A stretch of 64,000 nucleotides of DNA from an uncultured Candidatus Saccharibacteria bacterium (GCA_964496425.1 CAZBZO010000003.1:55728-119727), one strand, 5' to 3'. Positions 5,592 through 38,094 are shown, counted from the stretch's first letter. The notes: generated from the sequence alone by a model not told the origin. Made by a program: numbers and translations.

Positions 5592-6121
5592 AACTCCATC
5601 CGCATGAAAAGAAAATAGCTGTCTTTCGTAAGCATCCCTTTTACATCGCCGTCGATGCCGCACTCTTTTTATTTTTGGCCATACTGCCGATCGCACTCTA
5701 TCGATACGGCCTGCCATTTTTGGGAATAGAACTCTCCATCGTACTCGTCACCGTACTCGACACGTTGTTTTGGCTCTGGGTATTGTTTCTCTGGGTTGGA
5801 TTTTTTGTAGCTTGGACCAACTACTCGCTTGATCTCTGGATTCTCACCAACGAACGCCTCGTCGATGTCGAACAACTCGGGCTTTTTTCTCGAAGTGTCG
5901 CCACCTTGGAGCTTTCGCATGTCGAAGACGTCACTATAGAAACTCATGGCATGTGGGACGAGCTACTTCGTAGTGGCACAGTCAAAGTCCAAACCGCCGG
6001 CACTAAAGATGAATTTCGTATCAGAAATGTCGCCCTCCCCGAATCCGTCAAAGATACGATCCTTATCGCTCATCGAGCAAAGCGAGACGAAGTGAAAAAA
6101 GTGGAAGTCGTCAACGGATAA
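5588..6121 (+). CDS. Membrane protein with a bacterial PH-like (bPH_2/YdbS-like) domain
   Basis: An in-frame ATG at 5588 overlaps the upstream stop; the track ORF 5417-6121 is N-terminally over-extended. The protein has an N-terminal two-TM hairpin (FYIAVDAALFLFLAILPIAL...FWLWVLFLWVGFFVAW) followed by WILTNERLVDVEQLGLFSRSVATLELSHVEDVTIE...GTVKVQTAG, which is typical of the DUF304/bPH_2 fold. Confidence 0.55.
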   Translation: MKLHPHEKKIAVFRKHPFYIAVDAALFLFLAILPIALYRYGLPFLGIELSIVLVTVLDTLFWLWVLFLWVGFFVAWTNYSLDLWILTNERLVDVEQLGLFSRSVATLELSHVEDVTIETHGMWDELLRSGTVKVQTAGTKDEFRIRNVALPESVKDTILIAHRAKRDEVKKVEVVNG

Positions 6122-6231
6122 AAACACTTTCGTAAAAATAAGGTATTTCTCCTCCCACTTTTACTTCTTGCCACACAAGGAGTAGAATCATAGTAAATCA
6201 CACCCTTTCAAGTCACCTTAAAAACTCTCCC

Positions 6232-7086
6232 ATGAAAAAGACACTGCTCTTTTCATTGATGCTCATCTCGGCTACCGTGTGCGCTCAATACACTCCCAAA
6301 TCTCCGGGAAACGACACAATCATTTCTCGTTTTAATGCGCAAAGCGAATTTTTACTTTCGTATATCGCTTCCCCGATGTGTTTCAAGCACCTCAGGAGTT
6401 CGTATGCTTATCAAGCACAGATCATGTATATTGGTTCTGAAACAGATCCCTTAGACTCGATTCTTGCTCGAAATGAACAAAATATCCGCTATGATCGTGT
6501 CTGCACTGCATCGTATGCTATTCAAGAAAAAACAATATTGGATATGCTAATCGAACTTGCCACGAGTAACGGTGTAAGTTTTATCGGCCTCTACGCCGTC
6601 GAATCACCAGTGGCTATTTTTACTATCAGACCAAGCTACGGCATACTACATCACGTAGACAAAGGATCAATACTTTTTTCGCCGCTCGCACACGAAAAAT
6701 TGTATCGCACCTGTCCGATCCACGAACTCACACATCGAAGTACTGACGGTTCAGTGCGACTCAATCGAGGGACAATTATGCGCATCAGAGAAAAAACCAA
6801 ACTCGACACTGTGAGTTCCGGATTGTTTCTCGATCTGCGTACCAATACAATACATTGCTACTATGACAATCCATGTGAAGTGACAGCGCGACTCAATGCA
6901 CTTCGATATATTTTGTACCAGGCTGGAATATATGATCCACGATACCAGGAATTCAAAAAAGAATACCTGAGCTTTACTCAAAAATATTGTTCGGAGAAAA
7001 ATCCAGAATTCGACACCAATGTAGCTGATTTACTATCCATAGCCTCTCCAGACGATTTAGTCTGGCTAATGAATAATATTGATTGA
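6232..7086 (+). CDS. Secreted protein with a signal peptide and one HExxH motif, hypothetical
   Basis: MKKTLLFSLMLISATVCAQ is signal-peptide-like. There is a single IHELTHR (HExxH) motif. No other family resemblance was recognised. Confidence 0.45.
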   Translation: MKKTLLFSLMLISATVCAQYTPKSPGNDTIISRFNAQSEFLLSYIASPMCFKHLRSSYAYQAQIMYIGSETDPLDSILARNEQNIRYDRVCTASYAIQEKTILDMLIELATSNGVSFIGLYAVESPVAIFTIRPSYGILHHVDKGSILFSPLAHEKLYRTCPIHELTHRSTDGSVRLNRGTIMRIREKTKLDTVSSGLFLDLRTNTIHCYYDNPCEVTARLNALRYILYQAGIYDPRYQEFKKEYLSFTQKYCSEKNPEFDTNVADLLSIASPDDLVWLMNNID

Positions 7087-9098: not shown

Positions 9099-9521
9099 TT
9101 ATTTTCTTCCTGTGGAGCCAAATTGGCCCATACCGCGCGAAGAATCCGAAAGCTCGTCTACCTCTTCGAGCTCCACGATTTCTACTGGCATAATAAGAAG
9201 CTGAGCGACTTTGTCGCCTTTCTCCACCGCATAGGGCTGGTCTCCAAGATTCACCAGGTGCACATTGTATTCACCACGAAAGCCGGCATCAAAGGTACCA
9301 CCCATAGTGTGGAGTCCTGCTTTGGAAATACTACTTTTGTCTTTTACAAGCGCTGCATAACCTTCTGGAAATTCAAGCGCAAAGCCGCTCATAAAACGAT
9401 GGTGCTCGCCTGGCGGGATCACCACGTCTTCCATGGCGTACATATCGAGACCCACATCCCCTGGATGGGCGTAGCTCGGCATTTTCGTTTCAGAATATAA
9501 TTTTTTAATTTTGATTTTCAT
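9099..9521 (-). CDS. dut: dUTP diphosphatase
   Basis: 140 aa. PGDVGLDMYA, the HTMGGTFDAGFRGE motif and the C-terminal RGMGQFGSTG are conserved dUTPase motifs. Confidence 0.85.
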   Translation of the reverse strand: MKIKIKKLYSETKMPSYAHPGDVGLDMYAMEDVVIPPGEHHRFMSGFALEFPEGYAALVKDKSSISKAGLHTMGGTFDAGFRGEYNVHLVNLGDQPYAVEKGDKVAQLLIMPVEIVELEEVDELSDSSRGMGQFGSTGRK

Positions 9522-10005
9522 TGTTTAAAAAATAATTTGAATACATTCCAAAGTTTTTTAGAAATATGCTTGGATCTTTTTGATAAGCACTCAATAATTC
9601 TTCTGTGGTAAACCACCGTACTTCTTCGACTTCTTTCTTCTCGATTACAAGTAACGTATTCTTTGGTATCACGAGAGTAAACCATTGTACAAAATATTCG
9701 TGGGTAGTGGAACGACGCATCTTAGGCCCAAGTTTTGGTTTAATATTTTTTAACCCAATTTCTTCTTCTGCTTCTTTGATGATATTTGATTCATATGTTT
9801 CTCCTTCTTCGACTGTGCCTGCTACCGCTGGCCCCCACAGTCCAGGAAGTTTTCGTTTCAGATATGATCTTTGTGCAAGCAATATTTTGCCGGACGAATC
9901 AGTAATCCATAGGCCAGTCACACGCGTGATCTCTTTTTCGCCTCGTAGATCACGATCTTTATACTCTATGATTTCATCTTGTTCATTAACGATTGGAATT
10001 TTCAT
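9505..10005 (-). CDS. Nudix hydrolase
   Basis: GTVEEGETYESNIIKEAEEEIGL matches the Nudix box GX5EX7REUXEEXGU. It overlaps dut by 17 nt. Confidence 0.7.
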   Translation of the reverse strand: MKIPIVNEQDEIIEYKDRDLRGEKEITRVTGLWITDSSGKILLAQRSYLKRKLPGLWGPAVAGTVEEGETYESNIIKEAEEEIGLKNIKPKLGPKMRRSTTHEYFVQWFTLVIPKNTLLVIEKKEVEEVRWFTTEELLSAYQKDPSIFLKNFGMYSNYFLNNENQN

Positions 10006-10703
10006 TTGAATATCTTCTTTACTTTCTCGTAAATTTCTTCATGTATATCGTCTATCATGCGAAGTGCATTGTTGGGTGTACAGTCGATTTGAATATAATT
10101 CTTTTGTGTTTTCGAAAGCCAAAGCGCACTCTTACGAGAATTTTCCATATACGCAACATTGCCTTCCACAATATCTTTTTTCTTGCCAAGGTACGCCCGC
10201 TTGGTCTTTTTGTTGCGCTCTTTAATGAGATTTTTTATAAAGCTCATGGAAAGATTGAGGTAGAACACAGCTGCCGGACGCGGAATTTTGAATACTTCAT
10301 ATTCCATCTGATCGAGCCAGCGGATAAATTCTTGACGTTTCTTAGGGTTTCGGATTTTGCCGCCTTGATGGATTTGGTTCGCACTGGCATAACGATTGGC
10401 AAGTACGATATAGCCTTTTTTAAGCCATCCATTGATCTCTTCTTTGGATTCCCATCGATCAGCTGCATAGGCAAGCGAGGCGATTTTTGGATGAATCGTG
10501 ACCCAATTGTAGTAGCTTTCTGAAAGACACTCTCCGATGAATTTGCCAAAGAAGTTTTTGTAGTACTCGGGAAAGTCCACCACTTTCACTTTTTTGCCTT
10601 CTTTTAGGAGTCGCTTCCGCAAGAGCTCTACTTGAGTCGCCTTCCCGGAGCCATCCGTACCGTCTATGACAATGAGTTTGCCGCTTTTCATGCCCTTCAT
10701 CAT
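10002..10703 (-). CDS. tmk: Thymidylate (dTMP) kinase
   Basis: IVIDGTDGSGKATQVELLRKRL is the P-loop in dTMP kinase context. There is a 4-nt overlap with both neighbours. Confidence 0.8.
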   Translation of the reverse strand: MMKGMKSGKLIVIDGTDGSGKATQVELLRKRLLKEGKKVKVVDFPEYYKNFFGKFIGECLSESYYNWVTIHPKIASLAYAADRWESKEEINGWLKKGYIVLANRYASANQIHQGGKIRNPKKRQEFIRWLDQMEYEVFKIPRPAAVFYLNLSMSFIKNLIKERNKKTKRAYLGKKKDIVEGNVAYMENSRKSALWLSKTQKNYIQIDCTPNNALRMIDDIHEEIYEKVKKIFK

Positions 10704-11488
10704 AGCATACCGGTCTTTTCTCGAAGTTGCTTAAAATGTTTGAGGTAGGCGACGATTATGAAGCTGATGATGACCATGAGAAACCAGGAGCTAATCTTGT
10801 TGGCTGAAACTACATTCCACACATGGACTTGGTCCGGGTACTGCCAAGCTCCGAGAAATGTTGAAATGTTCTCTGCGATCCAGATAAAAAAAGCAATGAG
10901 AAGAAAAGAGATTCCGAGCGGCATACGGCGACGCTTCGTGGTGACAGTGAAGTAGACCTTTGTTTTCCAAAAAAATATAAATACGAGCGGAATAAGGAAA
11001 AGCCGAATATCAGGTAAGAAATGATTGGTAAAAAAGTTGAGGTAGATAAGTATTCCAAGTACAAAGCAACCGGTGTACGAATAGAGATGAGAGAGCTCAA
11101 GCTTGAAAATTTTCCAGGCTGCGACTATATAGCTTCCGATAGCTGCGTACATAAACCCGCTATAGAGTGGCACGGTCCAGATTTTGAAAAAAGCGTCTTC
11201 CGGATAGCTCCATGAACCGACAAAAGCGCTGGTCTTGTAGATCTCGAGCATGAGACCGATAATATGAAAAAGAAAAATAGTTTTGAGCTCATCTTTGGTT
11301 TCTAGTTTGAAGACATAGAGTAATACCTGGACGAGCACGCTGGCAAGAAAGAGAAAATCATAGCGCGCGAGCCCAAGCGTCGTAATGTATTGTGAGGTAA
11401 AGAGAAGCAGAAAAAATACTCCAGCAAAGAGCGCAGCTTGTGCCTGCTTTAAACCAAAAATGAGAAACTCTTTAGCGAAATTCTTCAT
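10700..11488 (-). CDS. Polytopic membrane protein of unknown function, embedded in the nucleotide operon
   Basis: 262 aa with about 8 hydrophobic helices and no recognisable motif. Its position suggests a transporter, possibly for a nucleoside or base. Confidence 0.45.
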   Translation of the reverse strand: MKNFAKEFLIFGLKQAQAALFAGVFFLLLFTSQYITTLGLARYDFLFLASVLVQVLLYVFKLETKDELKTIFLFHIIGLMLEIYKTSAFVGSWSYPEDAFFKIWTVPLYSGFMYAAIGSYIVAAWKIFKLELSHLYSYTGCFVLGILIYLNFFTNHFLPDIRLFLIPLVFIFFWKTKVYFTVTTKRRRMPLGISFLLIAFFIWIAENISTFLGAWQYPDQVHVWNVVSANKISSWFLMVIISFIIVAYLKHFKQLREKTGML

Positions 11489-11913
11489 TGAGATTCAATA
11501 TCAAAATAATTTCTTCCAGTTTTAAGTGCCTCAAAATATGAAGGGATGGTTGAAAAAAGAGGAGTTGGTAATTGCTCAGGATCATACCAATCCCAACCTT
11601 CACATTTTTCTGGCTCTCGTACTTCCGGCTCACCACTTTTCCAATCTGCCACCATGGCAATATCAACATAATGCTTACCGTAATTTGTCATATTCAACAA
11701 CCGTAGAAATTTAATATTTGTGACCTCAATTCCAGTTTCTTCTTTTACTTCCCGGCATACACACTCGCTGATTGATTCCATAAATTCCAAATGTCCTCCT
11801 GGCCATGCATACTCGCCTTCTCCATGAGAACTTTTACGCTTCCCCATTAACACCTTCCCATCCTTAAAAATCATCACCCCTACCCCTACTTTTGGCCGTT
11901 GTTCGTCTGTCAT
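11485..11913 (-). CDS. Nudix hydrolase
   Basis: GGHLEFMESISECVCREVKEETGIE is a Nudix box. Confidence 0.7.
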   Translation of the reverse strand: MTDEQRPKVGVGVMIFKDGKVLMGKRKSSHGEGEYAWPGGHLEFMESISECVCREVKEETGIEVTNIKFLRLLNMTNYGKHYVDIAMVADWKSGEPEVREPEKCEGWDWYDPEQLPTPLFSTIPSYFEALKTGRNYFDIESQ

Positions 11914-11916
11914 AAA

Positions 11917-12462
11917 TTAATTAGGTTTAATCTTTTGAATTAATCCTTCTTCAAGCAAACGAACCGCCGCCGGTGGTACATATTCTTTCCATTTATTGTT
12001 CCCCAAGACAATCATGCTGCGGATTTCGCTACCGCTAATTATTTTCTTTACTTCTCGTGATCTCACATCAAGACCAAGCTTTGCTAAAACTTTTTCTTTC
12101 TTTTTTCCCCATTCATCATATATATCGATAAAATAAATTGCGTCCGGAGGAGCATAATATTTTATCTTCTCTGGAAAATTAATCGGGAAAGGCACAATTT
12201 CAAATCTATCTCTGGAAATTCCTATATCAATCAAGGTGTCGCGAATCATCTCCAAGCGTTCCCAGTAAGAAAAAGGATTATTGATCTCTTCGGAACGATG
12301 AGGATTGGCATCATCAAAGCGGGTAAGGTCAGGATCTGGATTACATATACCGATTATAACTTTTTCGCATTCTTCAAATGCATGTAAAATCAAATCGTCC
12401 ACGTGGCCGTTATGAAGTATCTGAAATCGCCCATGCACTACCCCTATTTTTTCTTTTTTCAT
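11917..12462 (-). CDS. NadM/archaeal-type NMN adenylyltransferase-like nucleotidyltransferase
   Basis: IGVVHGRFQILHNGHVDDLI matches the (H/T)xGH nucleotidyltransferase motif in the GRFQPxHxGH form typical of NadM-type NMNATs. The start is taken at MKKEKIGVV, which abuts the DNPH1-like gene. Confidence 0.6.
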   Translation of the reverse strand: MKKEKIGVVHGRFQILHNGHVDDLILHAFEECEKVIIGICNPDPDLTRFDDANPHRSEEINNPFSYWERLEMIRDTLIDIGISRDRFEIVPFPINFPEKIKYYAPPDAIYFIDIYDEWGKKKEKVLAKLGLDVRSREVKKIISGSEIRSMIVLGNNKWKEYVPPAAVRLLEEGLIQKIKPN

Positions 12463-12463
12463 A

Positions 12464-12874
12464 CTAAAATTTATGGATGCTAATAAATTCCTCAAGAATT
12501 CGAGGTACGTCTTCAATGGTTTGATATTCACGCACGGTCACATGTGGACTCCCTGCAATCATGTTTGAGAGTTTGCGATCAGAGCCTGAACGGTAAAGAC
12601 ATAGTATGGGAATCTTGAGATGCTCTGCAGAAGCGATCTCATACCCAACCCCGAGACTTGGCGTCGTCACTTCAGCAATGAGTATATCAGTGGATTTGAG
12701 TTCTTCTCTATCTCTTTCATAGCTTTCTTGATCAGACATTATCTTGGTCTCTTCGCGAGGTCGGAGATGAAAAGAAATCACTTCACCATATTTTTGAATT
12801 TCACGAATGATCTCTTGGTAAAGCTCCTTATCATCACTTCCTCCTCGCACTGATCCAGAAAAATAGATTTTCAT
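12464..12874 (-). CDS. DNPH1/Rcl-like 2'-deoxynucleoside 5'-phosphate N-hydrolase (nucleoside 2-deoxyribosyltransferase fold)
   Basis: MKIYFSGSVRGG...ILIAEVTTPSLGVGYEIASA...IPILCLYRSGSDRKLSNMIAG aligns closely with mammalian Rcl/DNPH1 (YFCGSIRGG...VVVAEVTQPSLGVGYELG...RILCLFRPQSGRVLSAMIRG), including the catalytic Glu of PSLGVGYE. Confidence 0.7.
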   Translation of the reverse strand: MKIYFSGSVRGGSDDKELYQEIIREIQKYGEVISFHLRPREETKIMSDQESYERDREELKSTDILIAEVTTPSLGVGYEIASAEHLKIPILCLYRSGSDRKLSNMIAGSPHVTVREYQTIEDVPRILEEFISIHKF

Positions 12875-12876
12875 GG

Positions 12877-13527
12877 TTATGCGGTCGGCCGTTTAATGAT
12901 TAATTCTTCTTCCGGATTTTCTCGCTCGAGATTGTTTACAATTTTTTGAGCTACAAAATCAGAATCCATATACTCTTCAAAATTCGCTGGCTTATTTTCA
13001 CCATACAAATCCGTACGCGTACCTCCAGGATATACAGAAAAAATATTAACACCAGATCCTTCGTTCTCGGCTTTTAAGGCTTGTACATAGCCACGAATCG
13101 CCCATTTGCTGGCTGCATAAATCTTTGCATTCTTAGCACGAGTGGCATCAAGTGCCGCGCTTGAGAGAATATTTACTACTACACCACTATTGTTCGTTTT
13201 CATATATCCGAGCGCTGTTCGACAGCCAAATATAGTACCAAAAAGATTCGTGTCAATAATTTCATGCACTTTAATCATATCAATCAATGCTTCTTCAGGA
13301 GAAAATGTGTGGAACACGCCAGCATTGTTAATCCACACATCAATGCGGCCAAATTCTGCCACAGTTCTTTTTGCCAACGCTTGTACTTCCGTTTCCTTGC
13401 GCACATCGGTATCACTGCGGTCTGAAGCCACGACCTGTGCGCCTTTGTTTGTAAATAAAACAGCTAAGGATTTTCCTATCCCTTTTGACGCTCCAGTAAT
13501 AACAATGACTTTATCTTTGAGGATCAT
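12877..13527 (-). CDS. Short-chain dehydrogenase/reductase (SDR)
   Basis: VIVITGASKGIGKSLA is a TGxxxGxG Rossmann motif, and NAG plus YAASKWAIRGY gives the YxxxK catalytic motif. Confidence 0.75.
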   Translation of the reverse strand: MILKDKVIVITGASKGIGKSLAVLFTNKGAQVVASDRSDTDVRKETEVQALAKRTVAEFGRIDVWINNAGVFHTFSPEEALIDMIKVHEIIDTNLFGTIFGCRTALGYMKTNNSGVVVNILSSAALDATRAKNAKIYAASKWAIRGYVQALKAENEGSGVNIFSVYPGGTRTDLYGENKPANFEEYMDSDFVAQKIVNNLERENPEEELIIKRPTA

Positions 13528-13530
13528 TTT

Positions 13531-13974
13531 TTATTTTGAATGAGTGCTTTCACTAGCAAGTTTTTCCAGAAGTTTATCTCTAAATTTCATAACCATCATC
13601 TCTTGAGTAATAACTGAAGGATCTGAAGAATCAGTGAGCTCGTTGCCATAGTGTTCATGCATAAGCCAAGTACGAATGTATTTCTCATCTCTTTCATCTG
13701 GCATCGCTTCTGCAATCGCAATAAGTTTCTTCACAAAATTATTTTGCCGCATCGCGCGAAGTTTATCTAAATTCTTTTCAAGGCCTGCTGCAGTATCGAT
13801 TTTCAAAAGTGGTTTATCTTCAAAACCCTTTTGTACCATCTTTTGTTGGGTAATACCTTTTGTAAGCGGAACACCATTAAGGACAATAATAGGCTCCCCT
13901 TTTCTAATGATGTAAGTATCACGGGGTTTTTCGGAACTCCCAAAGTTATTCATATTTTCACTAAATCGAATCAT
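13531..13974 (-). CDS. Hypothetical protein
   Basis: 147 aa with a charged, non-repetitive composition and no recognised motif. It is translationally coupled within the operon. Confidence 0.4.
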   Translation of the reverse strand: MIRFSENMNNFGSSEKPRDTYIIRKGEPIIVLNGVPLTKGITQQKMVQKGFEDKPLLKIDTAAGLEKNLDKLRAMRQNNFVKKLIAIAEAMPDERDEKYIRTWLMHEHYGNELTDSSDPSVITQEMMVMKFRDKLLEKLASESTHSK

Positions 13975-13979
13975 ATCTT

Positions 13980-15236
13980 TTACACAAACTTCTCCGGTAT
14001 CGGATGACTTTCCGCCAGCGCTTTGATTTCAGCGCGAATGCGGTCTTTTACTCCGCTATCATCTTTATTACGCAAAGTTTCGATCAAGAGCTCCGCCACG
14101 CGAGCACAATCTGCTTCCATAAATCCTCGTGTGGTAATAGCTGGCGTGCCGAAGCGAATACCTGACGGATCAAGTGGCTTACGAGTGTCACCCGCAATAG
14201 AGTTCATATTGAGCGTAATGCCGACTTCATCGAGCACCGTCTGGGCTTCTTTGCCGGTCACACCGAGCGAGCCGAAAACATCAGCCAAGATCAAGTGATT
14301 GTCCGTGCCGCCGCCGATCATGCGCACGCCTTCTCGCTTGAGGACTTCTTCCATAGCTTTAGCGTTTTTGAGTATTTGCTTGGTATACGCTTGGTACGCT
14401 GGAGTCATAGCTTCACCAAAGGCCACGGCTTTAGCGGCAATGGTATGCATGTGCGGACCGCCTTGAATACCAGGAAAAATGGATTTGTCGATCTTCTTGG
14501 CAAGCTCTTCACTCTCACGGGTGAGTATCATGCCCCCACGTGGACCACGAAGTGTTTTGTGGGTCGTCGTGGTGATGATATCAAAACCATAATCAAATGG
14601 ATTCTCCAGTGCCTTACCTGCAATGAGTCCAGCGATATGCGCCATATCAGCCATGGTGATCGCCCCGACTTCGCGAGCAATCTCCACAAACTTTTTATAA
14701 TCGAGCGTGCGTGAGTACGCAGAAAATCCAGCGAGAATTATTTTTGGCTTCTTCTCGATAGCGACTTGTCGGAGGGCCTCGTAGTCAATCTCCCCTGTTT
14801 CCGGATCTTTCATTTTGTAAGTCACGAAGTTGTAAATCTTCGCCGGCAAAGTCATTGGATGACCATGGGTAAGGTGCCCACCATGAGAGAGATCCATACC
14901 AAGCACGGTATCGCCAGGAGAAAGAAGTGCGGCGTAGACTGCCAAGTTGGCCGGGGCACCGGAGTGCGGCTGGACATTGGCGTAGGCGCAATTAAAAAGT
15001 TTTTTCGCTCGCTCGATAGCAAGTGTCTCCACGATGTCAGTAAAATCCTGTCCGCCATAATAGCGCCGCCCTGGATACCCTTCGGAATATTTGTTGGTAA
15101 ACACCGAGCCGTTGGCTTCAAGGACGGCGCGCGATACGTAGTTTTCAGATGGAATGAGCTCAAGCCCTTCCCGCTCGCGCTTCTCTTCGCCTTCGATAGC
15201 CGCTAATACTTCAGGATCTTGTTGTAAATAATGCAT
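13980..15236 (-). CDS. glyA: Serine hydroxymethyltransferase
   Basis: 418 aa. The PLP-lysine region TTTTHKTLRGPRGG and the general SHMT signature are present. Confidence 0.95.
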   Translation of the reverse strand: MHYLQQDPEVLAAIEGEEKREREGLELIPSENYVSRAVLEANGSVFTNKYSEGYPGRRYYGGQDFTDIVETLAIERAKKLFNCAYANVQPHSGAPANLAVYAALLSPGDTVLGMDLSHGGHLTHGHPMTLPAKIYNFVTYKMKDPETGEIDYEALRQVAIEKKPKIILAGFSAYSRTLDYKKFVEIAREVGAITMADMAHIAGLIAGKALENPFDYGFDIITTTTHKTLRGPRGGMILTRESEELAKKIDKSIFPGIQGGPHMHTIAAKAVAFGEAMTPAYQAYTKQILKNAKAMEEVLKREGVRMIGGGTDNHLILADVFGSLGVTGKEAQTVLDEVGITLNMNSIAGDTRKPLDPSGIRFGTPAITTRGFMEADCARVAELLIETLRNKDDSGVKDRIRAEIKALAESHPIPEKFV

Positions 15237-15255
15237 GGAATATAAAAATTAATTA

Positions 15256-15765
15256 TTAATCAAACTGATGCCCAACAATATTCTGTGGATCTTTAATATT
15301 GAAAAGTTTCTCGCTATTTTTAAGTAAAGTAGCGTCTGAGATACCTGCTTTCAACATTTTATCCCAACATGGCTTGCAACACCACCAATGTCCCCATAAA
15401 TACAGCCGAGCTCCTCGCATATCAGCTTTATGCTTTTCTCCATCACGCACGGCGCGAAACTCTCCATGGTTTTTATGAGATGCACAGCCAGGGCAAAGAA
15501 AATAAAGTTTTCCAGATGGAACACCGAACAATCGTCGTATGCAATATTTTTTATGAAGTGCGACGAGCCTTGGATCTCGAAGTGCTGATTGATTGGCTCC
15601 TTTGGCGACAACTTTCCCGTCTTTAACGATGATCGCCCCCGTGGAGATGCTTGCATCAGTCGAATACCTCCGCGCTTCTTCTTTGGCTTCTGCCATATAA
15701 GGATCAGAGATTTCCACATAGGCAATTTTTCCACTTTGTGGCATATAGGGATATTGGATTTCCAT
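15256..15765 (-). CDS. dCMP deaminase-like zinc deaminase (CDA fold) with an extra Cys-rich insertion
   Basis: ISTGAIIVKDGKVVAKGANQ...HGEFRAV...GARLYLWGHWWCCKPCWDKMLKAGI aligns with the dCMP deaminase H(A/C)E...PCxxC...AGI zinc site. An extra CIRRLFGVPSGKLYFLCPGC block is inserted. Confidence 0.6.
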   Translation of the reverse strand: MEIQYPYMPQSGKIAYVEISDPYMAEAKEEARRYSTDASISTGAIIVKDGKVVAKGANQSALRDPRLVALHKKYCIRRLFGVPSGKLYFLCPGCASHKNHGEFRAVRDGEKHKADMRGARLYLWGHWWCCKPCWDKMLKAGISDATLLKNSEKLFNIKDPQNIVGHQFD

Positions 15766-15804
15766 ATGTAGCTATACTAACAGCTTTTATAGTAGAATGA
15801 AAAC

Positions 15805-16656
15805 ATGACAAAGTTCGACCAGCTCTACCAGGATCTTCTGAGAAATATTATGGAAACTGGTATTGCAGAGCACAACGAACGCACGGGCCATGAGACCAAA
15901 GCTTTGCCGGGAGTCTCGTTTTCGACCGATATTGAGCGTGACGGTCTCCCTATTCTTACGCTTCGCAAAATCCCCGTCAAAAGTTTCATCGCTGAACAAA
16001 TCTGGTTTATATCTGGTGCCAAACGTCCAGATGAATTTTTAAATAAACACACTCAAATCTGGAACGACTTTATGGAAACTGATGGCACGATTGCGGCCGC
16101 ATACGGCTATCGGTGGCGACACCATTTCGGACGCGATCAACTCGGACAACTCATCGCTCACTTAAAAGCTGAGCCACATTCCCGCCAAGGCGTCATCATC
16201 ACCTGGGATCCAGCCGACGACGGACTCTATGGGGATGGGCTTACCGCCACATACAAAAAAAATGCACCGTGTCCGTTTGCATTTACCGTCAATATTATCG
16301 GCGGACGACTTCACATGATGAATATCGTGAGATCAAATGATGCCATACTCGGTCTGCCTTTTGATGTCGCTGGATTTTCAATCCTGCAATGTATTCTTGC
16401 TCAAAAGCTCGGCGTGACGCCAGGTATCTATACCCACGTCATTGCCAACGCGCATGTCTATGACAATCACTATGAAGCGGCGAAGGAAATCGTTGCACGA
16501 GACCATGATCATACGCCAATCATATTGCACTTGCCAGAACATTCATTTGAACGCGCAGAAAAAAAAGATGATGCGCTCCTTGAAGAAATACAAAATGATA
16601 TCGCCTCGCAATATCAACCACTTGAATCAATTAAAGGACTGAAGATAGTACTGTAA
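15805..16656 (+). CDS. Thymidylate synthase-family enzyme with Asp at the Asn177-equivalent position, predicted dCMP-specific methylase or hydroxymethylase
   Basis: The region after the catalytic Cys aligns with E. coli ThyA without gaps. APCPFAFTVNIIGGRLHMMNIVRSNDAILGLPFDVAGF lines up with [38 protein letters not shown], and ANAHVYDNH with GDTHLYSNH. R21, R166, S167 and D169 are conserved. N177 is replaced by D (codon 16363-16365) and H147 by P. Confidence 0.8.
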   Translation: MTKFDQLYQDLLRNIMETGIAEHNERTGHETKALPGVSFSTDIERDGLPILTLRKIPVKSFIAEQIWFISGAKRPDEFLNKHTQIWNDFMETDGTIAAAYGYRWRHHFGRDQLGQLIAHLKAEPHSRQGVIITWDPADDGLYGDGLTATYKKNAPCPFAFTVNIIGGRLHMMNIVRSNDAILGLPFDVAGFSILQCILAQKLGVTPGIYTHVIANAHVYDNHYEAAKEIVARDHDHTPIILHLPEHSFERAEKKDDALLEEIQNDIASQYQPLESIKGLKIVL

Positions 16657-16668
16657 GTACATTCTTAT

Positions 16669-17079
16669 ATGAATACTCGCCACGTCGTTGTGGGTCTCGT
16701 CACCCACAAAAAGAAGGTATTGATATTGAAACGATCTGAAAATGATCCGACATACCCTGATATGTGGGAATTTATTTCCTGGGTCTCCAGAGAAAAAGCC
16801 ACACCGAAAATAGATGCGGTAAAACGGCACATCTGCCATGCCACAGGACTTTCTTTATCGGAGCCATATGCAGGGAAAAAATTTCGGGTAGCAAGCGTGC
16901 ACAGCACGTTGTATATGCACCCGTTTATTTTTCAGGCCGATAGTGATGAGGTCACGCTACTGCCAGAAAAACACGAGAGTTATAGATGGGTGCGGCCGCA
17001 AGATATAGGTAAATATGCCTTAGTGCAAGATTTGGACAACTGCCTCAAACTTCTTAGTATTTTGCTTGAACACTGGTAA
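16669..17079 (+). CDS. Nudix-fold protein with a degenerate Nudix box
   Basis: 136 aa. The N-terminal VVVGLVTHKKKVLILKR and overall length are Nudix-like, but the box region REKATPKIDAVKRHICHATGL lacks the REUXEE glutamates. Confidence 0.4.
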   Translation: MNTRHVVVGLVTHKKKVLILKRSENDPTYPDMWEFISWVSREKATPKIDAVKRHICHATGLSLSEPYAGKKFRVASVHSTLYMHPFIFQADSDEVTLLPEKHESYRWVRPQDIGKYALVQDLDNCLKLLSILLEHW

Positions 17080-17088
17080 ACTAGAGGT

Positions 17089-17607
17089 ATGATACTTTCT
17101 TTTATTGCCGCTATCGGCAAAAACCACGAGCTCGGCTTCGGCAATCAGTTGCCGTGGCATTTGCCGGACGATCTGAAGCGTTTCAAAGACATCACCCGCG
17201 GACACACAGTGCTGATGGGCCGAAAAACGTATGATTCCATCGGGCGACCACTCCCCGACCGACGTAACATAATCATCACTCGGGATACGACCTTTGTGGC
17301 GCCGGGTATTGAAGTCGCACATTCACTTGATGAAGCACTCCGCCTCGCCTCGCTTGATAATGGAAAACGATTTGAAGAGGTACCAGAAGAGCCTGAAGTA
17401 TTTGTGATCGGCGGAGGACAAGTCTTCACCGAGGCTCTCCCTCGCGCCCAAAAAATGTATCTCTCTCATGTCGAGACTGCTCTCCCCGCTGATTCTTTTT
17501 TCCCAAAATTTGATCTAGGGGAGTGGAAAATCCTAAGCGAAGAATTTCATCCAAAAGACGAAAAACATCTCTACGATTTTACCTTTAAACAATATGAACG
17601 AAAATAA
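17089..17607 (+). CDS. folA: Dihydrofolate reductase
   Basis: MILSFIAAIGKNHELGFGNQLPWHLPDDLKRFKDITRGHTVLMGRKTYDSIG is the canonical DHFR N-terminus, and the VIGGGQVF motif is present. Confidence 0.85.
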   Translation: MILSFIAAIGKNHELGFGNQLPWHLPDDLKRFKDITRGHTVLMGRKTYDSIGRPLPDRRNIIITRDTTFVAPGIEVAHSLDEALRLASLDNGKRFEEVPEEPEVFVIGGGQVFTEALPRAQKMYLSHVETALPADSFFPKFDLGEWKILSEEFHPKDEKHLYDFTFKQYERK

Positions 17608-17610
17608 CTA

Positions 17611-18195
17611 TCAGAGTAGAGCGTTTGGGAAATCTGATTGAAACTGAGATGCTGTGGTAAATAAGAGTGCACGCATACCAAGTCCAGCTGCAGCAGCAAT
17701 ATTTGCCGGGTTGTCATCCGTAAAAAGAATTTCATTTGCCATAAAGCCAGTTTTCTCAATAAAATATTTAAAAAAGTTTGGATCAGGCTTGATCATGTGG
17801 ACATCTCCTGAGATAGCAGTAGTATCAAAGAGAGCGAGTTTCTCTTTTAAAACATTTTCAATTAAACTTCGAGGGGCATTCGTGAGCAGGCCAATCTGGT
17901 ATTTCTTTTTTAATTCTAAAATAAACGTTAACAATTCTTCGTTTAAAATAGCATACTCATACGAACGCTGCTTGAGTTCACTAGAATCTTGATTAACTTC
18001 TGCCGCGAGTCTGCCGACAAATGCATCCTCCGAAACATCTCCAATATCGAGATCATGCACAACAATTTTCATCCATTCATTATATTTATTTTCGTCTCCG
18101 GAAAATACATCGCGCAAAAAGCCACCATACATTGGTGGACACAACACCCCAAAGAAATCGAATGCAATCATTTTAACCATAGTGCTATGGATCAA
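17611..18195 (-). CDS. HAD-superfamily hydrolase, 5'-nucleotidase-like
   Basis: The N-terminal MIAFDFFGVL is HAD motif I-like. GLLTNAP and a C-terminal DD... motif are present. It resembles the small HAD nucleotidase/phosphatase family. Confidence 0.5.
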   Translation of the reverse strand: MIHSTMVKMIAFDFFGVLCPPMYGGFLRDVFSGDENKYNEWMKIVVHDLDIGDVSEDAFVGRLAAEVNQDSSELKQRSYEYAILNEELLTFILELKKKYQIGLLTNAPRSLIENVLKEKLALFDTTAISGDVHMIKPDPNFFKYFIEKTGFMANEILFTDDNPANIAAAAGLGMRALLFTTASQFQSDFPNALL

Positions 18196-18514
18196 GCGGG
18201 GTACGCATGCGGATAAATATGTCTTTACCGTCCGGTGATTTCTCCTTTTTGTATTTTCTATTTTTATTTATTTCAATCTTGCGCACCAATTCTTTCTCGA
18301 GGTCGTAGCCAAGTGTTTCGCACATACCAAGAAGAAAAATAGCAACGTCGGCGAATTCTTCCGCTACTCCAGGCTGGTTTTTACTGTATTTAGAAAATGC
18401 CTCGGAAAGCTCTTCGTGTGCGCGACAGAATTCAAAGGCAATATCACTGGTATTAAAGCCCTTTTCGAGCTTATTACGCATGACTTCCGCCTGTAAAACT
18501 TTAAGATCAATCAT
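18185..18514 (-). CDS. MazG-like all-alpha nucleoside triphosphate pyrophosphohydrolase
   Basis: 109 aa. AHEELSEAFSKY...GVAEEFADVAIFLLGM carries the EExxE...E..D metal-binding pattern of small MazG/dCTPase-like NTP-PPases. Confidence 0.55.
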   Translation of the reverse strand: MIDLKVLQAEVMRNKLEKGFNTSDIAFEFCRAHEELSEAFSKYSKNQPGVAEEFADVAIFLLGMCETLGYDLEKELVRKIEINKNRKYKKEKSPDGKDIFIRMRTPLDP

Positions 18515-18551
18515 AGGTACAGTATAAAGTATTATGTATAAAGTATAAAGC

Positions 18552-19832
18552 CTAAAAACTCTTCCGATTCTTCAAAACATATTCCTCAGAATACCAACGC
18601 TTGCGAAGCTCGCCAATCAAATAGAAAGAGCCAGTGACCAAAATCAGATCACCCTTGGTAGCATTTTTCATCGCTTTATCCAGGGCCTGACCAGGATCAA
18701 GAAACATCTCAAGTGTCATAGTTTTCTTTTTGTATTTTTTTGAAAGCTGATAGAGTTCTCGTGGATTGGCCGCCTTGTGACCAGACCCGAGCTGAGTCAG
18801 ATAGACATGGTCTGCGAGAGACAAAAGTGGAGCAAGCGTATGAAGCGGATTTTTGCCTTGCTTCATACCGAAGACGAGGTGGAGTTTCTTGTATTTTAAT
18901 TTTTTTACATTCTCAACGGTTGTTAAAATCTTGGCTCTATTGTGGGCACCATCGAGCACAACAAGTGGAGACTTTTGCATCGTCTCAAATCGCCCCGGCA
19001 ACCGACACTTCTCTATCGCCTCCTTTACTTTTATTTCCGGTAAACCAATGTAGGCACAGATAGCTTCTACAAGCATTCGGTTGGCTTTCTTATACTCCTG
19101 AGTGACAGGGAGCGGCATATACTTGGCCCCGACTTTTTTCGCCAAGGTCACCAAATAGCTCCGGATCGCAGGACGAGTTTCGGTTGTAAAAAATGCACTT
19201 CCCCTTTTTAGAATACCAGCTTTGTTCCAAGCAATATTTTTGAGCGTGGGCCCGAGAAGTTCAATGTGGTCATAATCGATATTGGTGATCGCTGTCACTT
19301 GAGGCTTTGCGATAATATTTGTCGAGTCATACCTGCCACCACAGCCGACTTCAAGTACAACATGCTCGCATTTCATATCGCGAAAGTAGAGGAGCGCAAT
19401 CGCAGTCTTAAGCTCGGTATATGACGGGCCGCCATACGGCGCGTCACGATAGGCTTTATCAACCAACGGTTTGCATTGCTCCATATAGGCTGCAAAAGCC
19501 CCCGGTGCAATATAGGTATCATTTACTTTTATATTTTCAATCGCGGAGGAAACATAGGGCGACGTATAGAGGCCAACTTTTTTGCCGCTTCTCCATAAGG
19601 CTTCCGCTACTGTAGCTGAAATCGTACCTTTGCCTGACGTACCGGTAATATGAATATATTTCATTCCCCGCTCCGGATGACCGAGAAGATCTAGAAAATA
19701 TTCCATCCGCTTGAGATAGAACGTCGTGTGTTGGCGATCACGCATATAATCGCGGTTGGCGACATTTGCCAGACTCGTGAGATACTCGTGAGCCTTGTGA
19801 TATGCTGTGAAATTTTTATCCTTTACGTTCAT
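18552..19832 (-). CDS. folC: Folylpolyglutamate synthase / dihydrofolate synthase (Mur ligase family)
   Basis: IHITGTSGKGTISATVAEAL is the Mur-ligase P-loop, and the FolC-type central and C-terminal domains are present. Confidence 0.8.
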   Translation of the reverse strand: MNVKDKNFTAYHKAHEYLTSLANVANRDYMRDRQHTTFYLKRMEYFLDLLGHPERGMKYIHITGTSGKGTISATVAEALWRSGKKVGLYTSPYVSSAIENIKVNDTYIAPGAFAAYMEQCKPLVDKAYRDAPYGGPSYTELKTAIALLYFRDMKCEHVVLEVGCGGRYDSTNIIAKPQVTAITNIDYDHIELLGPTLKNIAWNKAGILKRGSAFFTTETRPAIRSYLVTLAKKVGAKYMPLPVTQEYKKANRMLVEAICAYIGLPEIKVKEAIEKCRLPGRFETMQKSPLVVLDGAHNRAKILTTVENVKKLKYKKLHLVFGMKQGKNPLHTLAPLLSLADHVYLTQLGSGHKAANPRELYQLSKKYKKKTMTLEMFLDPGQALDKAMKNATKGDLILVTGSFYLIGELRKRWYSEEYVLKNRKSF

Positions 19833-19864: not shown

Positions 19865-20536
19865 CTAAACTTTTGTACCCTGCACATTAAAATTTGTTTC
19901 ACTTGTTGTGTGCGCTCCGCGAAGCAATCGAATACCAAGATATGAGAATGGTGTATAGAGTGCACCCATAGCTACTTTATAGAGCCACCAGGGAATGATC
20001 ATGAGGATAAGCGTTTTGATATCATATACTCCCACAAACGCAATCGCCATCCAGAGCACGGTATCAAGAAGTTCAGACCAGAGATTGGAAAGGTTTGAGC
20101 GAAGCCAAAATTTCTTGCTGCCAAACTTTCTCTTCAAAAAAAAGAACGCCGTAACATCTTGATATTCCGCGACCGCAAATGCGACAACAGATGCGATCGA
20201 CATTCGGATCGAAATACCAAAAAGCGTATTGTATGAATCATGCGCCCAGAGGCTCGCGTCCGACCATGGCATCACGATCGAAAGAATATTCCAGAGTGTA
20301 AATAAAACAGTTGTAATAATCCCCGCGAGGACAAAGGACCTGGCCATTGGTTTCCCATATACCTCGCCAACCACGTCGGTGATGATGTAAACAAAGGGAA
20401 AATAGAAGATCGACACCGACAGATGAGTGCCAAAAAGAAACGGCATGGTTTTAACGCCAAGGGTATTGGCTGCCAAAAGCGCCGTGAGGTAGAGCGCGAG
20501 CGCTATAATGATTTTCCGATCAATGATTTTTTCCAC
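19865..20536 (-). CDS. YhhQ/DUF165-family queuosine-precursor/vitamin uptake transporter-like membrane protein
   Basis: SIFYFPFVYIITDVVGEVYGKPMARS and NLWSELLDTVLWM parallel E. coli YhhQ (FSFPFIFLATDLTVRIFGAPLARR and LFGNVSDTLAFF). It has 6 TM helices. Confidence 0.6.
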   Translation of the reverse strand: MEKIIDRKIIIALALYLTALLAANTLGVKTMPFLFGTHLSVSIFYFPFVYIITDVVGEVYGKPMARSFVLAGIITTVLFTLWNILSIVMPWSDASLWAHDSYNTLFGISIRMSIASVVAFAVAEYQDVTAFFFLKRKFGSKKFWLRSNLSNLWSELLDTVLWMAIAFVGVYDIKTLILMIIPWWLYKVAMGALYTPFSYLGIRLLRGAHTTSETNFNVQGTKV

Positions 20537-20576
20537 TGTAAAAAACTAAAAATACCCGCAAGGGTATTTTTAGTGG

Positions 20577-37005: not shown

Positions 37006-38004
37006 TTACTTATCCTCCTCTTTCTTTGTGTGCCCGTGGGCATCGACTTCGTATGCAGTGTTCTGGGCTTCAAAGAAGTTCACAAGTTCATAGACATCGG
37101 TGGCGCCGGCCATCCATTTTGCTGGATTGGTAGCATTGTAATGCTTCGGCATACCGAGCTCTTCCAAGCGGCGATCTGCTACGTATTTCACATATTGATT
37201 TACATAGTCAGCATTGAGGCCTAAAATGCCGTTTGGAAAGAGGTCTTTGTTGTAGGCGACTTCAAGATCGACACCTTCCACAACAATCGTCCGGATTTCT
37301 TCAGCAAATTCTGGCGTCAACAAATCAGGATTCTCTTCAAGAATATGCATGATGAGATTCATGCCAAACTTCAAGTGGAGTGACTCGTCGCGAATAACCC
37401 AGTTGATCATACTCGCAAAGTTTCGAAGTTTATTGCGCTGGCGGAACGACAAGACCACCATGAAGCCCGAATAGAACCAAACACCTTCCATGACAATATT
37501 GGTTGCTACGAGATTGCGAATAAAATCTTTTTTCCCTTGTGTCGTTTCAATATCTAGCGTGTCTTCGGTCATGCGGCGCAAATATTTTGTGATGAAGGCC
37601 TCTTTTTTTACCATTGAATCAGTCTGCGTGTGCACTTCATATATCGTATCGCGACCCATAGGAAATGTTTCAAGCACGTACTCAAAGGCTACACAGTGGT
37701 TGGCCTCTTCCCACATTTGCTTCGCAAGATACAAATGGCATTCAGGAGACTTAATATACGGATAGACACCGAGCGCAAGAGAGCGGTTCACAATAAGCTC
37801 TGCCGGATTGAAAAATGACATGAGGAATTTTACGGCATGACGTTCATCTTCCGTCATATCGTTCCAGTCTTTCAAATCTTCCCCGAGCGGGATCTCATGA
37901 GGGAACCATGTGTTGCGCACAGCTTGGTTGTAGAGTTCATAGGCCCACTTATAGTGCATGGGATGCAGGGATGTATCTTCTGGTGTAGCTTTTCCGATCA
38001 ACAT
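37006..38004 (-). CDS. nrdB: Ribonucleoside-diphosphate reductase beta (small) subunit, class I
   Basis: Ferritin-like di-iron sites (EANHCVAFEYVLETF, RDESLHLKFG) and the tyrosyl-radical region. It is adjacent to nrdA. Confidence 0.9.
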   Translation of the reverse strand: MLIGKATPEDTSLHPMHYKWAYELYNQAVRNTWFPHEIPLGEDLKDWNDMTEDERHAVKFLMSFFNPAELIVNRSLALGVYPYIKSPECHLYLAKQMWEEANHCVAFEYVLETFPMGRDTIYEVHTQTDSMVKKEAFITKYLRRMTEDTLDIETTQGKKDFIRNLVATNIVMEGVWFYSGFMVVLSFRQRNKLRNFASMINWVIRDESLHLKFGMNLIMHILEENPDLLTPEFAEEIRTIVVEGVDLEVAYNKDLFPNGILGLNADYVNQYVKYVADRRLEELGMPKHYNATNPAKWMAGATDVYELVNFFEAQNTAYEVDAHGHTKKEEDK

Positions 38005-38094
38005 AATAGTAGTTAGTAGTTAGTAGTAAATAGTTAGTAGGACGACATAGTTAGTGTATTTTTCTACTTACTACTAACTACTTTCTACTAACTG
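38005..38094. repeat. Inverted repeat of TAGTTAGTAG-type units (long imperfect hairpin) in the nrdA-nrdB intergenic spacer
   Basis: AGTTAGTAGTAAATAGTTAGTAG (left arm) pairs with CTACTAACTACTTTCTACTAACT (right arm), giving an approximately 23-bp imperfect stem around a roughly 25-nt loop. The arms are built from direct repeats of (T)AGTTAGTAG. Confidence 0.6.

Follow-up and report, generated by a model that had tools for sequence, protein, structure and literature searches.

A thymidylate/folate-cycle locus in a Patescibacteria chromosome with a cytosine-type thymidylate synthase homolog and a predicted 5-methyldeoxycytidine nucleotide pathway

Thymidylate synthesis is regarded as universal, with deoxyuridine monophosphate (dUMP) being methylated by either ThyA or ThyX. 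Here we describe a bacterial locus in which the order of steps leading to thymidylate (dTMP) may be reversed. The locus, including a thymidylate synthase (TS) homolog and a putative deaminase encoded next to it, occupies positions 9099-19832 of a 64-kb stretch of DNA (CAZBZO010000003.1:55728-119727, assembly GCA_964496425.1), deposited as an uncultured Candidatus Saccharibacteria bacterium and referred to below as the window. The closest characterized relatives of the TS homolog are bacteriophage enzymes. The N177D mutation (E. coli ThyA numbering) makes TS a methylase of deoxycytidine monophosphate (dCMP), and no other positions tell TS homologs of cytosine-modified phage contigs from those of unmodified ones as well as 177 and 147 do (PMC8670742). 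An Asp equivalent to Asp177 is the mark of the cytosine enzymes T4 gp42 (the T4 dCMP hydroxymethylase, CH), MilA and BcmA; Ser167 together with Arg126' is specific for the deoxyribo form of the substrate, and Ala/Lys at these positions for the ribo form, as in MilA and BcmA (PMC5175136). Hydroxymethylases also lack the C-terminal segment that closes the folate site in TS, and they release tetrahydrofolate (THF), so that no dihydrofolate reductase (DHFR) is needed (PMC5175136). Genes for dCMP deaminases are found beside TS homologs in 70% of cytosine-modified contigs versus 6% of unmodified ones, the TS homologs linked to deaminases mostly have Asp177, and five of the seven tested made 5-methyldeoxycytidine (5-methyl-dC) in vivo (10.1101/2024.12.05.627091). 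One linked phage deaminase is selective for 5-methyl-dCTP, and in phages where 5-methylcytosine (5mC) fully replaces cytosine it has been proposed to draw on the 5-methyl-dC pool to provide deoxythymidine (dT) nucleotides; a deaminase gene within 3 kb of an Asp177 TS homolog served as the criterion for such 5mC-selective deaminases (mSCD) (10.1101/2024.12.05.627091).

The locus analyzed here is chromosomal and belongs to a Patescibacteria (candidate phyla radiation, CPR; Paceibacteria/Nomurabacteria-like) genome. It is flanked by ileS-argS on one side and by rplK-nusG-secE on the other. Since this arrangement is kept in relatives and the G+C content is uniform over the window, we consider the region chromosomal housekeeping DNA and not a prophage. 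Identical proteins are found on metagenome contigs, and homologs are labeled as Candidatus Paceibacterota, Nomurabacteria, Parcubacteria, Colwellbacteria, Liptonbacteria or 'Patescibacteria group'. The region as a whole is a thymidylate/folate-cycle locus that has been enlarged in this lineage by accessory nucleotide and NAD genes (Table 1). Most parts of the cluster are ordinary. What is unexpected, and open to direct experimental test, is the conserved core, which forms a counterpart, on a bacterial chromosome, to a phage pathway of 5-methyl-dC nucleotides.

The evidence for this starts with the active site of the TS homolog. We aligned the protein and its relatives with E. coli ThyA and T4 gp42, both reference sequences having been verified against the PDB. 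The query features RSNDAILGLPFD and APCP in place of RSCDVFLGLPFN and APCH of E. coli ThyA; the matching sites of ThyA proteins with solved structures show RS.D...G.PFN and PCH. In other words, Asn177 is changed to Asp and His147 to Pro. Glu58, Trp80, Tyr94, Arg126, Cys146, Arg166, Ser167, Asp169, His207 and Tyr209 are all retained, and the RSND and SRQ motifs (Ser167 and Arg126') make the pocket a deoxyribo-type one. Based on Asp177/Pro147 in combination with Ser167/Arg126, we assign the query to cytosine-type, deoxyribo-type enzymes. Judging from these positions, the TS homolog is very probably cytosine-specific.

The signature is not a peculiarity of a single sequence. Asp and PCP occur in all 120 best TS homologs from a collection of 5.8 billion proteins and in 33 of 33 TS open reading frames (ORFs) of the related loci that we fetched, being common to all 29 independent loci. 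In an exhaustive search of 1.84 billion cluster representatives, approximately the first 87 all combine Asp177 with a residue other than His147, and the canonical His/Asn pair is seen only below ~140 bits. Positions 177 and 147 covary almost perfectly in this set. One of the related contigs, L031 (CAZPPQ010000002.1), is labeled 'uncultured Gammaproteobacteria bacterium'; it encodes the Asp-type TS and the deaminase, and its rplK/nusG are 60-63% identical to those of the window. Probably, it is a mis-binned or mislabeled Patescibacteria contig.

By fold and by Cys146, Glu58, Tyr94, Arg166, Asp169, His207 and Tyr209 the protein belongs with ThyA; by positions 177 and 147 it does not. Its AlphaFold2 (AF2) model (pLDDT 92) superposes on full-length E. 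coli ThyA with TM-scores of 0.80/0.85. One of the eight NCBIfam TS equivalog models is passed (TIGR03284, 125.7 versus the cutoff of 108.35), and the other seven are failed by wide margins (e.g. 156.3 versus 327). The TIGR03284 result fits an ordinary cycle, in which the deaminase would convert dCMP to dUMP and the TS would methylate dUMP despite Asp177, the locus being a lineage-specific but conventional salvage/de novo dTMP operon. The annotation sources, which speak of thymidylate synthase and deoxycytidylate deaminase, agree with this too, and the gene content (dCMP-deaminase-like protein, TS, DHFR, serine hydroxymethyltransferase (SHMT), Dut and Tmk) is that of the textbook pathway. We nevertheless consider the ordinary cycle unlikely, because Asp177/Pro147 is invariant in the clade, seven of the eight equivalogs are failed and the closest characterized relatives are phage enzymes forming 5-methyl-dCMP. 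Moreover, the exchange between Asn and Asp switches specificity in both directions in the cited mutagenesis, and the same papers cite no natural dUMP-specific TS with Asp (PMC8670742, PMC5175136).

The ordinary cycle might also draw support from Dut, and in relatives from a DCD-like gene, being encoded near TS. A gene of the dCTP deaminase family directly follows the Asp-type TS in the related loci L005 (10856-11485, plus strand) and L007 (10901-11530, plus strand). However, these proteins have Pro (..TLP..) where solved dCTP deaminases have their catalytic Glu (..TLE..), and we therefore dropped the gene as a sign of a dUMP route. To judge by this replacement, pyrophosphatase activity is more likely for the DCD-like protein than deamination.

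The phage relatives of the TS homolog are a further line of evidence. The best phage matches are the Asp/Pro-type enzymes of Bradleyvirinae and Steinhofvirus, namely those of Xanthomonas phage Mallos, Pseudomonas phage ZQG1 and Achromobacter phage 83-24 (171-177 bits, 36-38% identity, versus 89-127 bits for canonical TS). Mallos and ZQG1 are members of Bradleyvirinae, the subfamily that includes Xp12 and PaMx74. All three phage enzymes have D177/P147, as does the query, and in all three genomes the gene order is pyrophosphohydrolase, TS, deaminase, with DHFR added in Mallos and ZQG1. The sequence-only reading had noted that the density of nucleotide hydrolases in the region resembles phage nucleotide-modification modules. 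The resemblance holds, but what carries it is the Asp177/Pro147 TS together with a deaminase, DHFR and an all-alpha NTP pyrophosphatase.

The likeness to the Xp12/PaMx74 module thus extends over D177/P147, the TS-type C-terminus of the enzyme, a deaminase of the cytidine deaminase (CDA) fold, DHFR and the all-alpha NTP pyrophosphatase. There are also clear differences. The module consists of phage genes in a co-linear order, whereas here the genes are chromosomal, located between argS and rplK-nusG in several Patescibacteria lineages, and divergently arranged. The 5mC-selective deaminase and the PRA-PH/MazG pyrophosphatase of the phages represent families not detectably related to the bacterial ones. 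Orthology of the deaminases and of the pyrophosphatases finds no support in BLAST searches, and only TS is clearly kin. Finally, 5mC is part of the DNA in Xp12-type phages, which may or may not be so in these bacteria.

If the TS homolog acts on cytosine, its product could be either methylated or hydroxymethylated. The C-terminal ~60 residues are of the TS type and conserved, as is the tail, which varies neither in length nor in pattern (I.GL.I[VI][LK]); T4 CH has neither segment. None of the hydroxymethylases, T4 CH included, is among the top 50 fold matches of the TS model. Downstream of TS, folA follows in 20 of the 29 independent related loci. Because of the C-terminal tail, the ThyA-like model and the linkage to folA, we expect reductive methylation with dihydrofolate (DHF) and 5-methyl-dCMP as the output, and, given cytosine specificity, a methyl product is likely, rather than a hydroxymethyl one. 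The query has neither the open folate site linked to THF release in T4-type hydroxymethylases nor the Ala167 and Lys126' of MilA and BcmA, the respective residues being Ser and Arg. In contrast, Asp177 with non-His147, Ser167/Arg126' and, more indirectly, the TS-type C-terminus together with the linkage to DHFR agree with an Xp12-type dCMP C5-methyltransferase (EC 2.1.1.54).

The same features bear on the possibility that the enzyme is a (d)CMP hydroxymethylase passing its product to the glycosidase and/or the deaminase of the locus, in the manner of MilA/MilB and BcmA/BcmB. Here, Asp177 is indeed shared with T4 gp42, MilA and BcmA, and a glycosidase of the Nuc_deoxyrib_tr family is encoded in the unit that runs from the deaminase to dut. 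Yet, Ser167/Arg126 are the deoxyribo marks, the TS-type tail is conserved (it is missing from T4 CH, and in MilA another domain stands in its place), DHFR is co-conserved although hydroxymethylases yield THF, and the glycosidase is of the DNPH1 type, with just 2 of 29 relatives encoding it near TS at ≥40% identity. We therefore regard a hydroxymethylase as very improbable, and consider it just as improbable that the locus delivers what such an enzyme would give: free 5-hydroxymethylcytosine, a metabolite derived from it, or 5-hydroxymethyl-dC nucleotides.

Two described systems are instructive in this respect. The T4 pathway (gp42, the gp56 dCTPase, the gp1 kinase and the Cd deaminase) resembles the present locus in having a cytosine-specific Asp-type TS homolog with the RSND motif and a companion pyrophosphatase, kinase and deaminase, with T4 Cd being the top fold match of our deaminase. 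It differs in that gp42, which is 23% identical to E. coli ThyA, has no TS C-terminal region and makes THF, not DHF. The MilA/MilB and BcmA/BcmB clusters likewise pair a cytosine-type TS homolog with a Nuc_deoxyrib_tr-family glycosidase. However, MilA and BcmA have Ala/Lys in place of the Ser167/Arg126 seen here, the glycosidase is here DNPH1-like, and the pairing is not conserved in relatives.

The glycosidase matches human DNPH1 with E 5e-22 and rat Rcl with E 7e-24, and the alignment covers the phosphate loop (YF.GS.RGG) and AEVT.PSLGVGYE, in which AEVT contains the catalytic Glu. Matches to MilB and BlsM are limited to E 0.002-0.02, and on this difference in similarity we rejected a MilB/BlsM-type identity. 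Thus, MilB/BlsM/BcmB-type chemistry, which had been brought up for this protein, is at odds both with the E-values and with Ser167/Arg126 of the TS. DNPH1 homologs had further been thought uncommon in bacteria; we found 4184 clusters (90% identity) at E≤1e-10 in many prokaryotic phyla, with names including Paceibacterota, Woesearchaeota, Gemmatimonadaceae, Acidobacteria and Rhodohalobacter. A reading of the locus centered on DNPH1 and 5-hydroxymethyl nucleotides accordingly finds no support, as DNPH1 homologs are common, the gene is outside the conserved core, and the TS has a TS-type C-terminal tail. Mammalian DNPH1, a 5-hydroxymethyl-dUMP N-hydrolase, shares with the protein ~50% identity over 110 residues and the phosphate-binding and catalytic motifs, and a predicted deaminase of 5-substituted dC nucleotides is present in the same locus. 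In the 2021 work of Fugger and colleagues, DNPH1 reportedly acts on a product made by DCTD. The prokaryotic homologs differ in being widespread without a link to TS. One may speculate that the DNPH1-like protein clears a hydroxymethyl side-product.

The deaminase gene is 39-60 nt away from the TS gene, or 39 nt if the start at 15765 is taken, which agrees with the N-terminal motif of the family (IxYPYLP). It thus lies well within the 3-kb distance to an Asp177 TS by which 5mC-selective deaminases have been recognized. In relatives, a search with a hidden Markov model (HMM) of the family placed the deaminase within 700 nt of TS in 26 of 28 informative independent loci. Loci with this pair are labeled Nomurabacteria/Paceibacterota, Shapirobacteria and Uhrbacteria. 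All 50 sequences compared share the zinc motifs H..E and C..C (H93, E95, C123 and C126), and there is a second Cys/His cluster. A PDB sequence search detected no solved relatives better than E 1e-3, the ComEB model (TIGR02571) is failed by far (22.9 versus the cutoff of 219), and family members go under the PGAP/NCBI name 'hypothetical protein'. The AF2 model of the deaminase (pLDDT 90) has dCMP deaminases of T4, human, PBCV-1 and S. mutans as its best fold matches (TM-score ~0.5, E 2e-6 to 3e-5), interleaved with TadA and RibD.

Matches of the bacterial protein to the deaminases of Mallos, ZQG1 and 83-24 are weak (E 0.03-0.9). A search of 50,697 phage records for the bacterial-type deaminase returned two weak matches only, and in IMG/VR we found two loci with such a deaminase, neither of which has a TS nearby. 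On one of them, a 38-kb 'viral' contig (L039, IMGVR_UViG_3300028274_000021), the family member (6001-6471) is 37% identical to the query, and there is no TS within 6 kb; this contig may come from a CPR phage or be a misclassified piece of a CPR genome. We conclude that the deaminase represents a divergent, distinct family and predict that it acts on 5-methyl-dC nucleotides.

Another component shared in kind with the phages is the MazG-like protein. Its HEELSE and AEEFADV motifs correspond to the metal-binding pattern EExxE ... ExxD, although its Pfam MazG-like score (26.7) is just below the cutoff of 27. In the PDB it weakly matches a pyrophosphatase, MazZ and DCTPP1. Across the Paceibacteria loci L006-L026 the protein is 70-85% identical. 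It thereby equals NusG and RplK in conservation and exceeds the adjacent TS (60-69%), which implies strong constraint on its function. By analogy with phage dCTPases and DCTPP1, our guess is that it turns dCTP into dCMP, clears 5-methyl-dCTP, or does both.

Taken together, these components suggest the following scheme. Ribonucleotide reductase would supply dC nucleotides, and the MazG-like pyrophosphatase would yield dCMP from dCTP and/or destroy 5-methyl-dCTP. The Asp-type TS would then methylate dCMP with 5,10-methylene-THF, giving 5-methyl-dCMP and dihydrofolate. GlyA would reload the one-carbon unit as 5,10-methylene-THF, FolA would reduce dihydrofolate, and FolC would retain the folate. 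The CDA-fold deaminase would convert the 5-methyl-dC nucleotide, either mono- or triphosphate, to the dT nucleotide. The Tmk-like kinase would phosphorylate the resulting monophosphate or, alternatively, 5-methyl-dCMP, and Dut would remove dUTP. Compared with the textbook, thymidylate would be made in the reverse order, with methylation first and deamination second, as proposed for Xp12-type phages. The sequence data show which genes are present, the active-site signature with its conservation, the synteny and the kinship with the phage enzymes, whereas the methyl nature of the product, the substrate of the deaminase, the role of MazG and the absence of 5-methyl-dC from DNA are inferences. Relative to the canonical thymidylate cycle (ComEB or Dcd-Dut, ThyA, FolA, GlyA and Tmk), the enzyme families and the folate logic (methylene-THF in, DHF out) are the same, whereas Asp177/Pro147 replace Asn/His, seven of the eight ThyA equivalogs and the ComEB model are failed, and the predicted order of steps is reversed. 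As to substrate supply, the class I ribonucleotide reductase encoded in the window (nrdB/nrdA) is a source of dCDP and dUDP, so the organism reduces ribonucleotides itself and does not live by salvage only.

We give the scheme as a whole, in which dCMP is methylated and then deaminated to a dT nucleotide and 5-methyl-dC is only transient, an even chance of being correct. Several considerations weigh against it. Every functional step relies on homology, on two active-site positions and on gene neighborhood. The gene set is the canonical one listed above, and synteny by itself is blind to the order of steps. By BLAST, the parallel with the phage deaminase and MazG is one of functional analogy, not of orthology, and the sole characterized phage deaminase uses a triphosphate, not a monophosphate. 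If the TS is unable to use dUMP, dUMP made by Dut is a dead end. Furthermore, a canonical ThyA or ThyX may be encoded elsewhere in these genomes, beyond the 64-kb window. Within the window, tblastn found no second TS, ThyX, Tdk or Dcd; the queries were PDB-verified E. coli ThyA, the DCD-like protein translated from L005 and, for ThyX and Tdk, unverified sequences. A survey of open-access papers and preprints turned up nothing on an Asp-type TS, a dCMP methylase or 5mC DNA in CPR/Patescibacteria, the relevant ones being concerned with phages and MilA.

A different outcome of the same enzymes would be that 5mC, through the nucleotide pool, takes the place of most or all cytosine in the genome, as in Xp12, with the MazG-like protein serving as dCTPase, the Asp-type TS and the Tmk-like kinase making the precursor, and the deaminase providing dT. 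All four functions of the phage scheme are present and conserved (pyrophosphatase, Asp-type TS, deaminase, and a Tmk-like kinase that fails dTMP kinase cutoffs), and the enrichment of Asp177 TS-deaminase pairs on modified-cytosine contigs (70% versus 6%; 10.1101/2024.12.05.627091) points in the same direction. On the other hand, such replacement would require replication independent of dCTP and repair that copes with 5mC, neither of which has left a sign in the window. Our literature survey yielded no report of such DNA in CPR bacteria, and sequence data are blind to modification. To our knowledge, there is no cellular precedent: we know of no cellular organism in which cytosine is replaced wholesale. 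We therefore consider 5mC replacement quite unlikely, and equally so its extension to several Patescibacteria lineages by vertical inheritance, which would make them the first cells with a base substituted before replication.

Should the methylation-first scheme be true in a large bacterial radiation, cells would have a third, reverse-order route to dTMP. The annotations 'thyA' and 'dCMP deaminase' would then be misleading in thousands of CPR genomes, and metabolic models would be wrong about dUMP and dCMP flows. A phage DNA-modification pathway would become tied to the housekeeping of ultra-small bacteria that share the size fraction of phages, with consequences for virome studies in which 'Asp177 TS plus deaminase' serves to recognize phages with modified DNA. 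As the deaminases of these bacteria form a family distinct from the phage 5mC-selective deaminases now used in methylation sequencing, they are a possible new source of such enzymes. If, alternatively, 5-methyl-dC were incorporated, this would be the first cell with wholesale base substitution.

To see how the core is embedded, we compiled the features of the locus (Table 1).

Table 1. Features of the thymidylate/folate-cycle locus and associated elements. Positions are counted within the 64-kb window; minus-strand genes are listed by low-high coordinates.
Feature	Position	Strand	Basis
dut, dUTP diphosphatase	9099-9521	-	Pfam dUTPase E 4e-26; NCBIfam NF001862 115.2 versus cutoff 103
Nudix hydrolase A	9505-10005	-	Pfam NUDIX E 8e-20; intact Nudix box GTVEEGETYESNIIKEAEEEIGL
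Thymidylate-kinase-like dNMP kinase (tmk-like)	10002-10703	-	Pfam Thymidylate_kin E 9e-18
DUF817 membrane protein	10700-11488	-	Pfam DUF817 E 3e-92
Nudix hydrolase B	11485-11913	-	intact Nudix box
NadM-like nucleotidyltransferase (NMN adenylyltransferase type)	11917-12462	-	Pfam CTP_transf_like; NCBIfam NF002243 E 1e-14, below cutoff
DNPH1/Rcl-type 2'-deoxynucleoside 5'-phosphate N-hydrolase homolog	12464-12874	-	phmmer E 7e-24 to rat Rcl
Short-chain dehydrogenase/reductase (SDR)	12877-13527	-	Pfam adh_short E 4e-38
Hypothetical protein, 147 aa	13531-13974	-	lineage-specific
glyA, serine hydroxymethyltransferase	13980-15236	-	Pfam SHMT E 2e-157; NCBIfam NF000586 569.9 versus cutoff 335
CDA-fold zinc deaminase, dCMP-deaminase-like	15256-15765	-	Pfam dCMP_cyt_deam_1 36.7 bits
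Divergent intergenic region between deaminase and TS, 39 nt	15766-15804	.	divergent layout conserved in most Paceibacteria-type loci
TS homolog, cytosine type (Asp177/Pro147); predicted dCMP C5-methyltransferase	15805-16656	+	active-site alignment
Nudix-fold protein without Nudix box	16669-17079	+	weak Pfam NUDIX match, 24 bits
folA, dihydrofolate reductase	17089-17607	+	Pfam DHFR_1 E 1e-55
HAD-IA family hydrolase	17611-18180	-	Pfam Hydrolase/HAD_2; TIGR01509 50.9 versus cutoff 29.4
MazG-like all-alpha NTP pyrophosphatase, 109 aa	18185-18514	-	PHROG 3301 'pyrophosphatase' E 2.4e-14
folC, folylpolyglutamate/dihydrofolate synthase	18552-19832	-	NCBIfam TIGR01499 299.9 versus cutoff 162.65
YhhQ/Vut_1 family transporter	19865-20536	-	TIGR00697 128.3 versus cutoff 50.95
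Terminator-like hairpin behind rplK	20545-20574	-	13-bp stem and T-run; upstream limit of cluster transcription
Class I ribonucleotide reductase nrdB/nrdA	37006-40659	-	Ribonuc_red_sm E 2e-79; Ribonuc_red_lgC E 1e-164; ATP-cone on large subunit

All 17 genes that the sequence-only reading had placed at 9099-19832 are present there with the families it predicted, according to the ORF listing, Pfam and NCBIfam. The tight packing is also real, the median same-strand gap being 3 nt (n=15) in the block versus 80 nt (n=36) for the remainder of the window (Mann-Whitney test, p=2.6e-6). However, to say that nearly every gene overlaps its neighbor by 1-17 nt is an overstatement, as four junctions overlap (-17, -4, -4 and -4 nt) and the others have gaps of 1-39 nt. 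Nor does the strand layout allow for a single super-operon: two strand switches predict at least three transcription units. The first (minus strand) comprises 11 genes, from the deaminase through dut; dut, the last of them, adjoins argS in relatives too. The second (plus strand) consists of the genes for TS and the Nudix-fold protein and of folA. The third (minus strand) is yhhQ-folC-mazG-HAD and begins after the terminator-like hairpin behind rplK. Its first gene, yhhQ, is beyond position 19832, at which the cluster had been thought to end, and is found between mazG and rplK in several relatives. A promoter/terminator scan of the window gave counts not above those of shuffled sequences (29 versus 26.5 and 17 versus 12.5), and only the rplK hairpin is convincing. 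An Rfam scan of the window detected no family at the gathering threshold, no tRNA and no riboswitch that would account for the organization. Overall, the minus strand holds 54 of the 62 called genes of the window.

The synteny of the region is conserved in part. While dut, tmk, glyA, the deaminase, TS, folA and mazG recur in relatives, the 17-gene assembly is specific to this lineage; by comparison of the 29 loci, DUF817, NadM, SDR, the 147-aa protein, the Nudix-fold protein, HAD and folC are lineage-specific. Among the recurring genes, glyA adjoins the deaminase in 12 of the 29 loci and a tmk homolog is found near TS in 10. The Tmk-like protein has the P-loop GTDGSGKAT and a DRW motif, and its scores are below the NCBIfam dTMP kinase cutoffs (66.8 versus 83 and 90.6 versus 193). 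NadM with Nudix B, DNPH1, SDR, DUF817, HAD, the Nudix-fold protein and the 147-aa protein are passengers outside the conserved core.

Some of these passengers deserve comment. The NadM-like protein, 181 aa in the form given by the gene caller, has the motifs GRFQILHNGH and ISGSEIR. Nudix B, encoded directly downstream of it, matches the Nudix domain of bifunctional NMN adenylyltransferase/Nudix proteins in NCBIfam. Its position beside the NadM-like gene and its match to NadM-Nudix fusions suggest that Nudix B belongs to NAD/ADP-ribose metabolism. The two genes probably represent a NadM-Nudix protein that has been split, with Nudix B as the Nudix half, and Nudix B is more likely an ADP-ribose pyrophosphatase of NAD salvage than a dNTP sanitizer. 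The gene taken to be a third Nudix-like one does give a weak Nudix-fold match. However, its product lacks the GX5EX7REUXEEXGU motif and is probably not a pyrophosphohydrolase; the gene is absent from the 29 related loci. Consequently, the idea of a pool-sanitizing Nudix set is conjectural and, for two of its three members, doubtful. The remaining one, Nudix A, has weak NCBIfam matches, all below cutoff. SDR likewise gives only generic SDR matches below cutoff in NCBIfam, and the HAD protein passes a generic HAD-IA model only, scoring far below the cutoffs of pyrimidine nucleotidase models. The 147-aa protein has no match in Pfam, NCBIfam or PHROGs and no homolog in the 29 related loci, and none of these loci has a DUF817 gene near TS.

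A few further genes of the window are worth mentioning. Endonuclease V (47886-48593, minus strand) is encoded close to a protein of the PD-(D/E)XK nuclease superfamily (49000-49839, minus strand). Endonuclease V acts on deaminated bases, and its presence may be relevant to a cell with dC-nucleotide deaminases. The IleRS-like class I aminoacyl-tRNA synthetase (1144-4758, minus strand; tRNA-synt_1, Anticodon_1 and DUF5915) contains a His_Phos_1 (histidine-phosphatase) insertion at residues 536-701, an architecture that recurs in the related loci L006-L009. There are also two Kelch-repeat proteins (55143-57161 and 63061-63978, both on the minus strand), and the gene of the first coincides with the one stretch of the window in which GC skew is strongly positive (+0.24, 56-58 kb).

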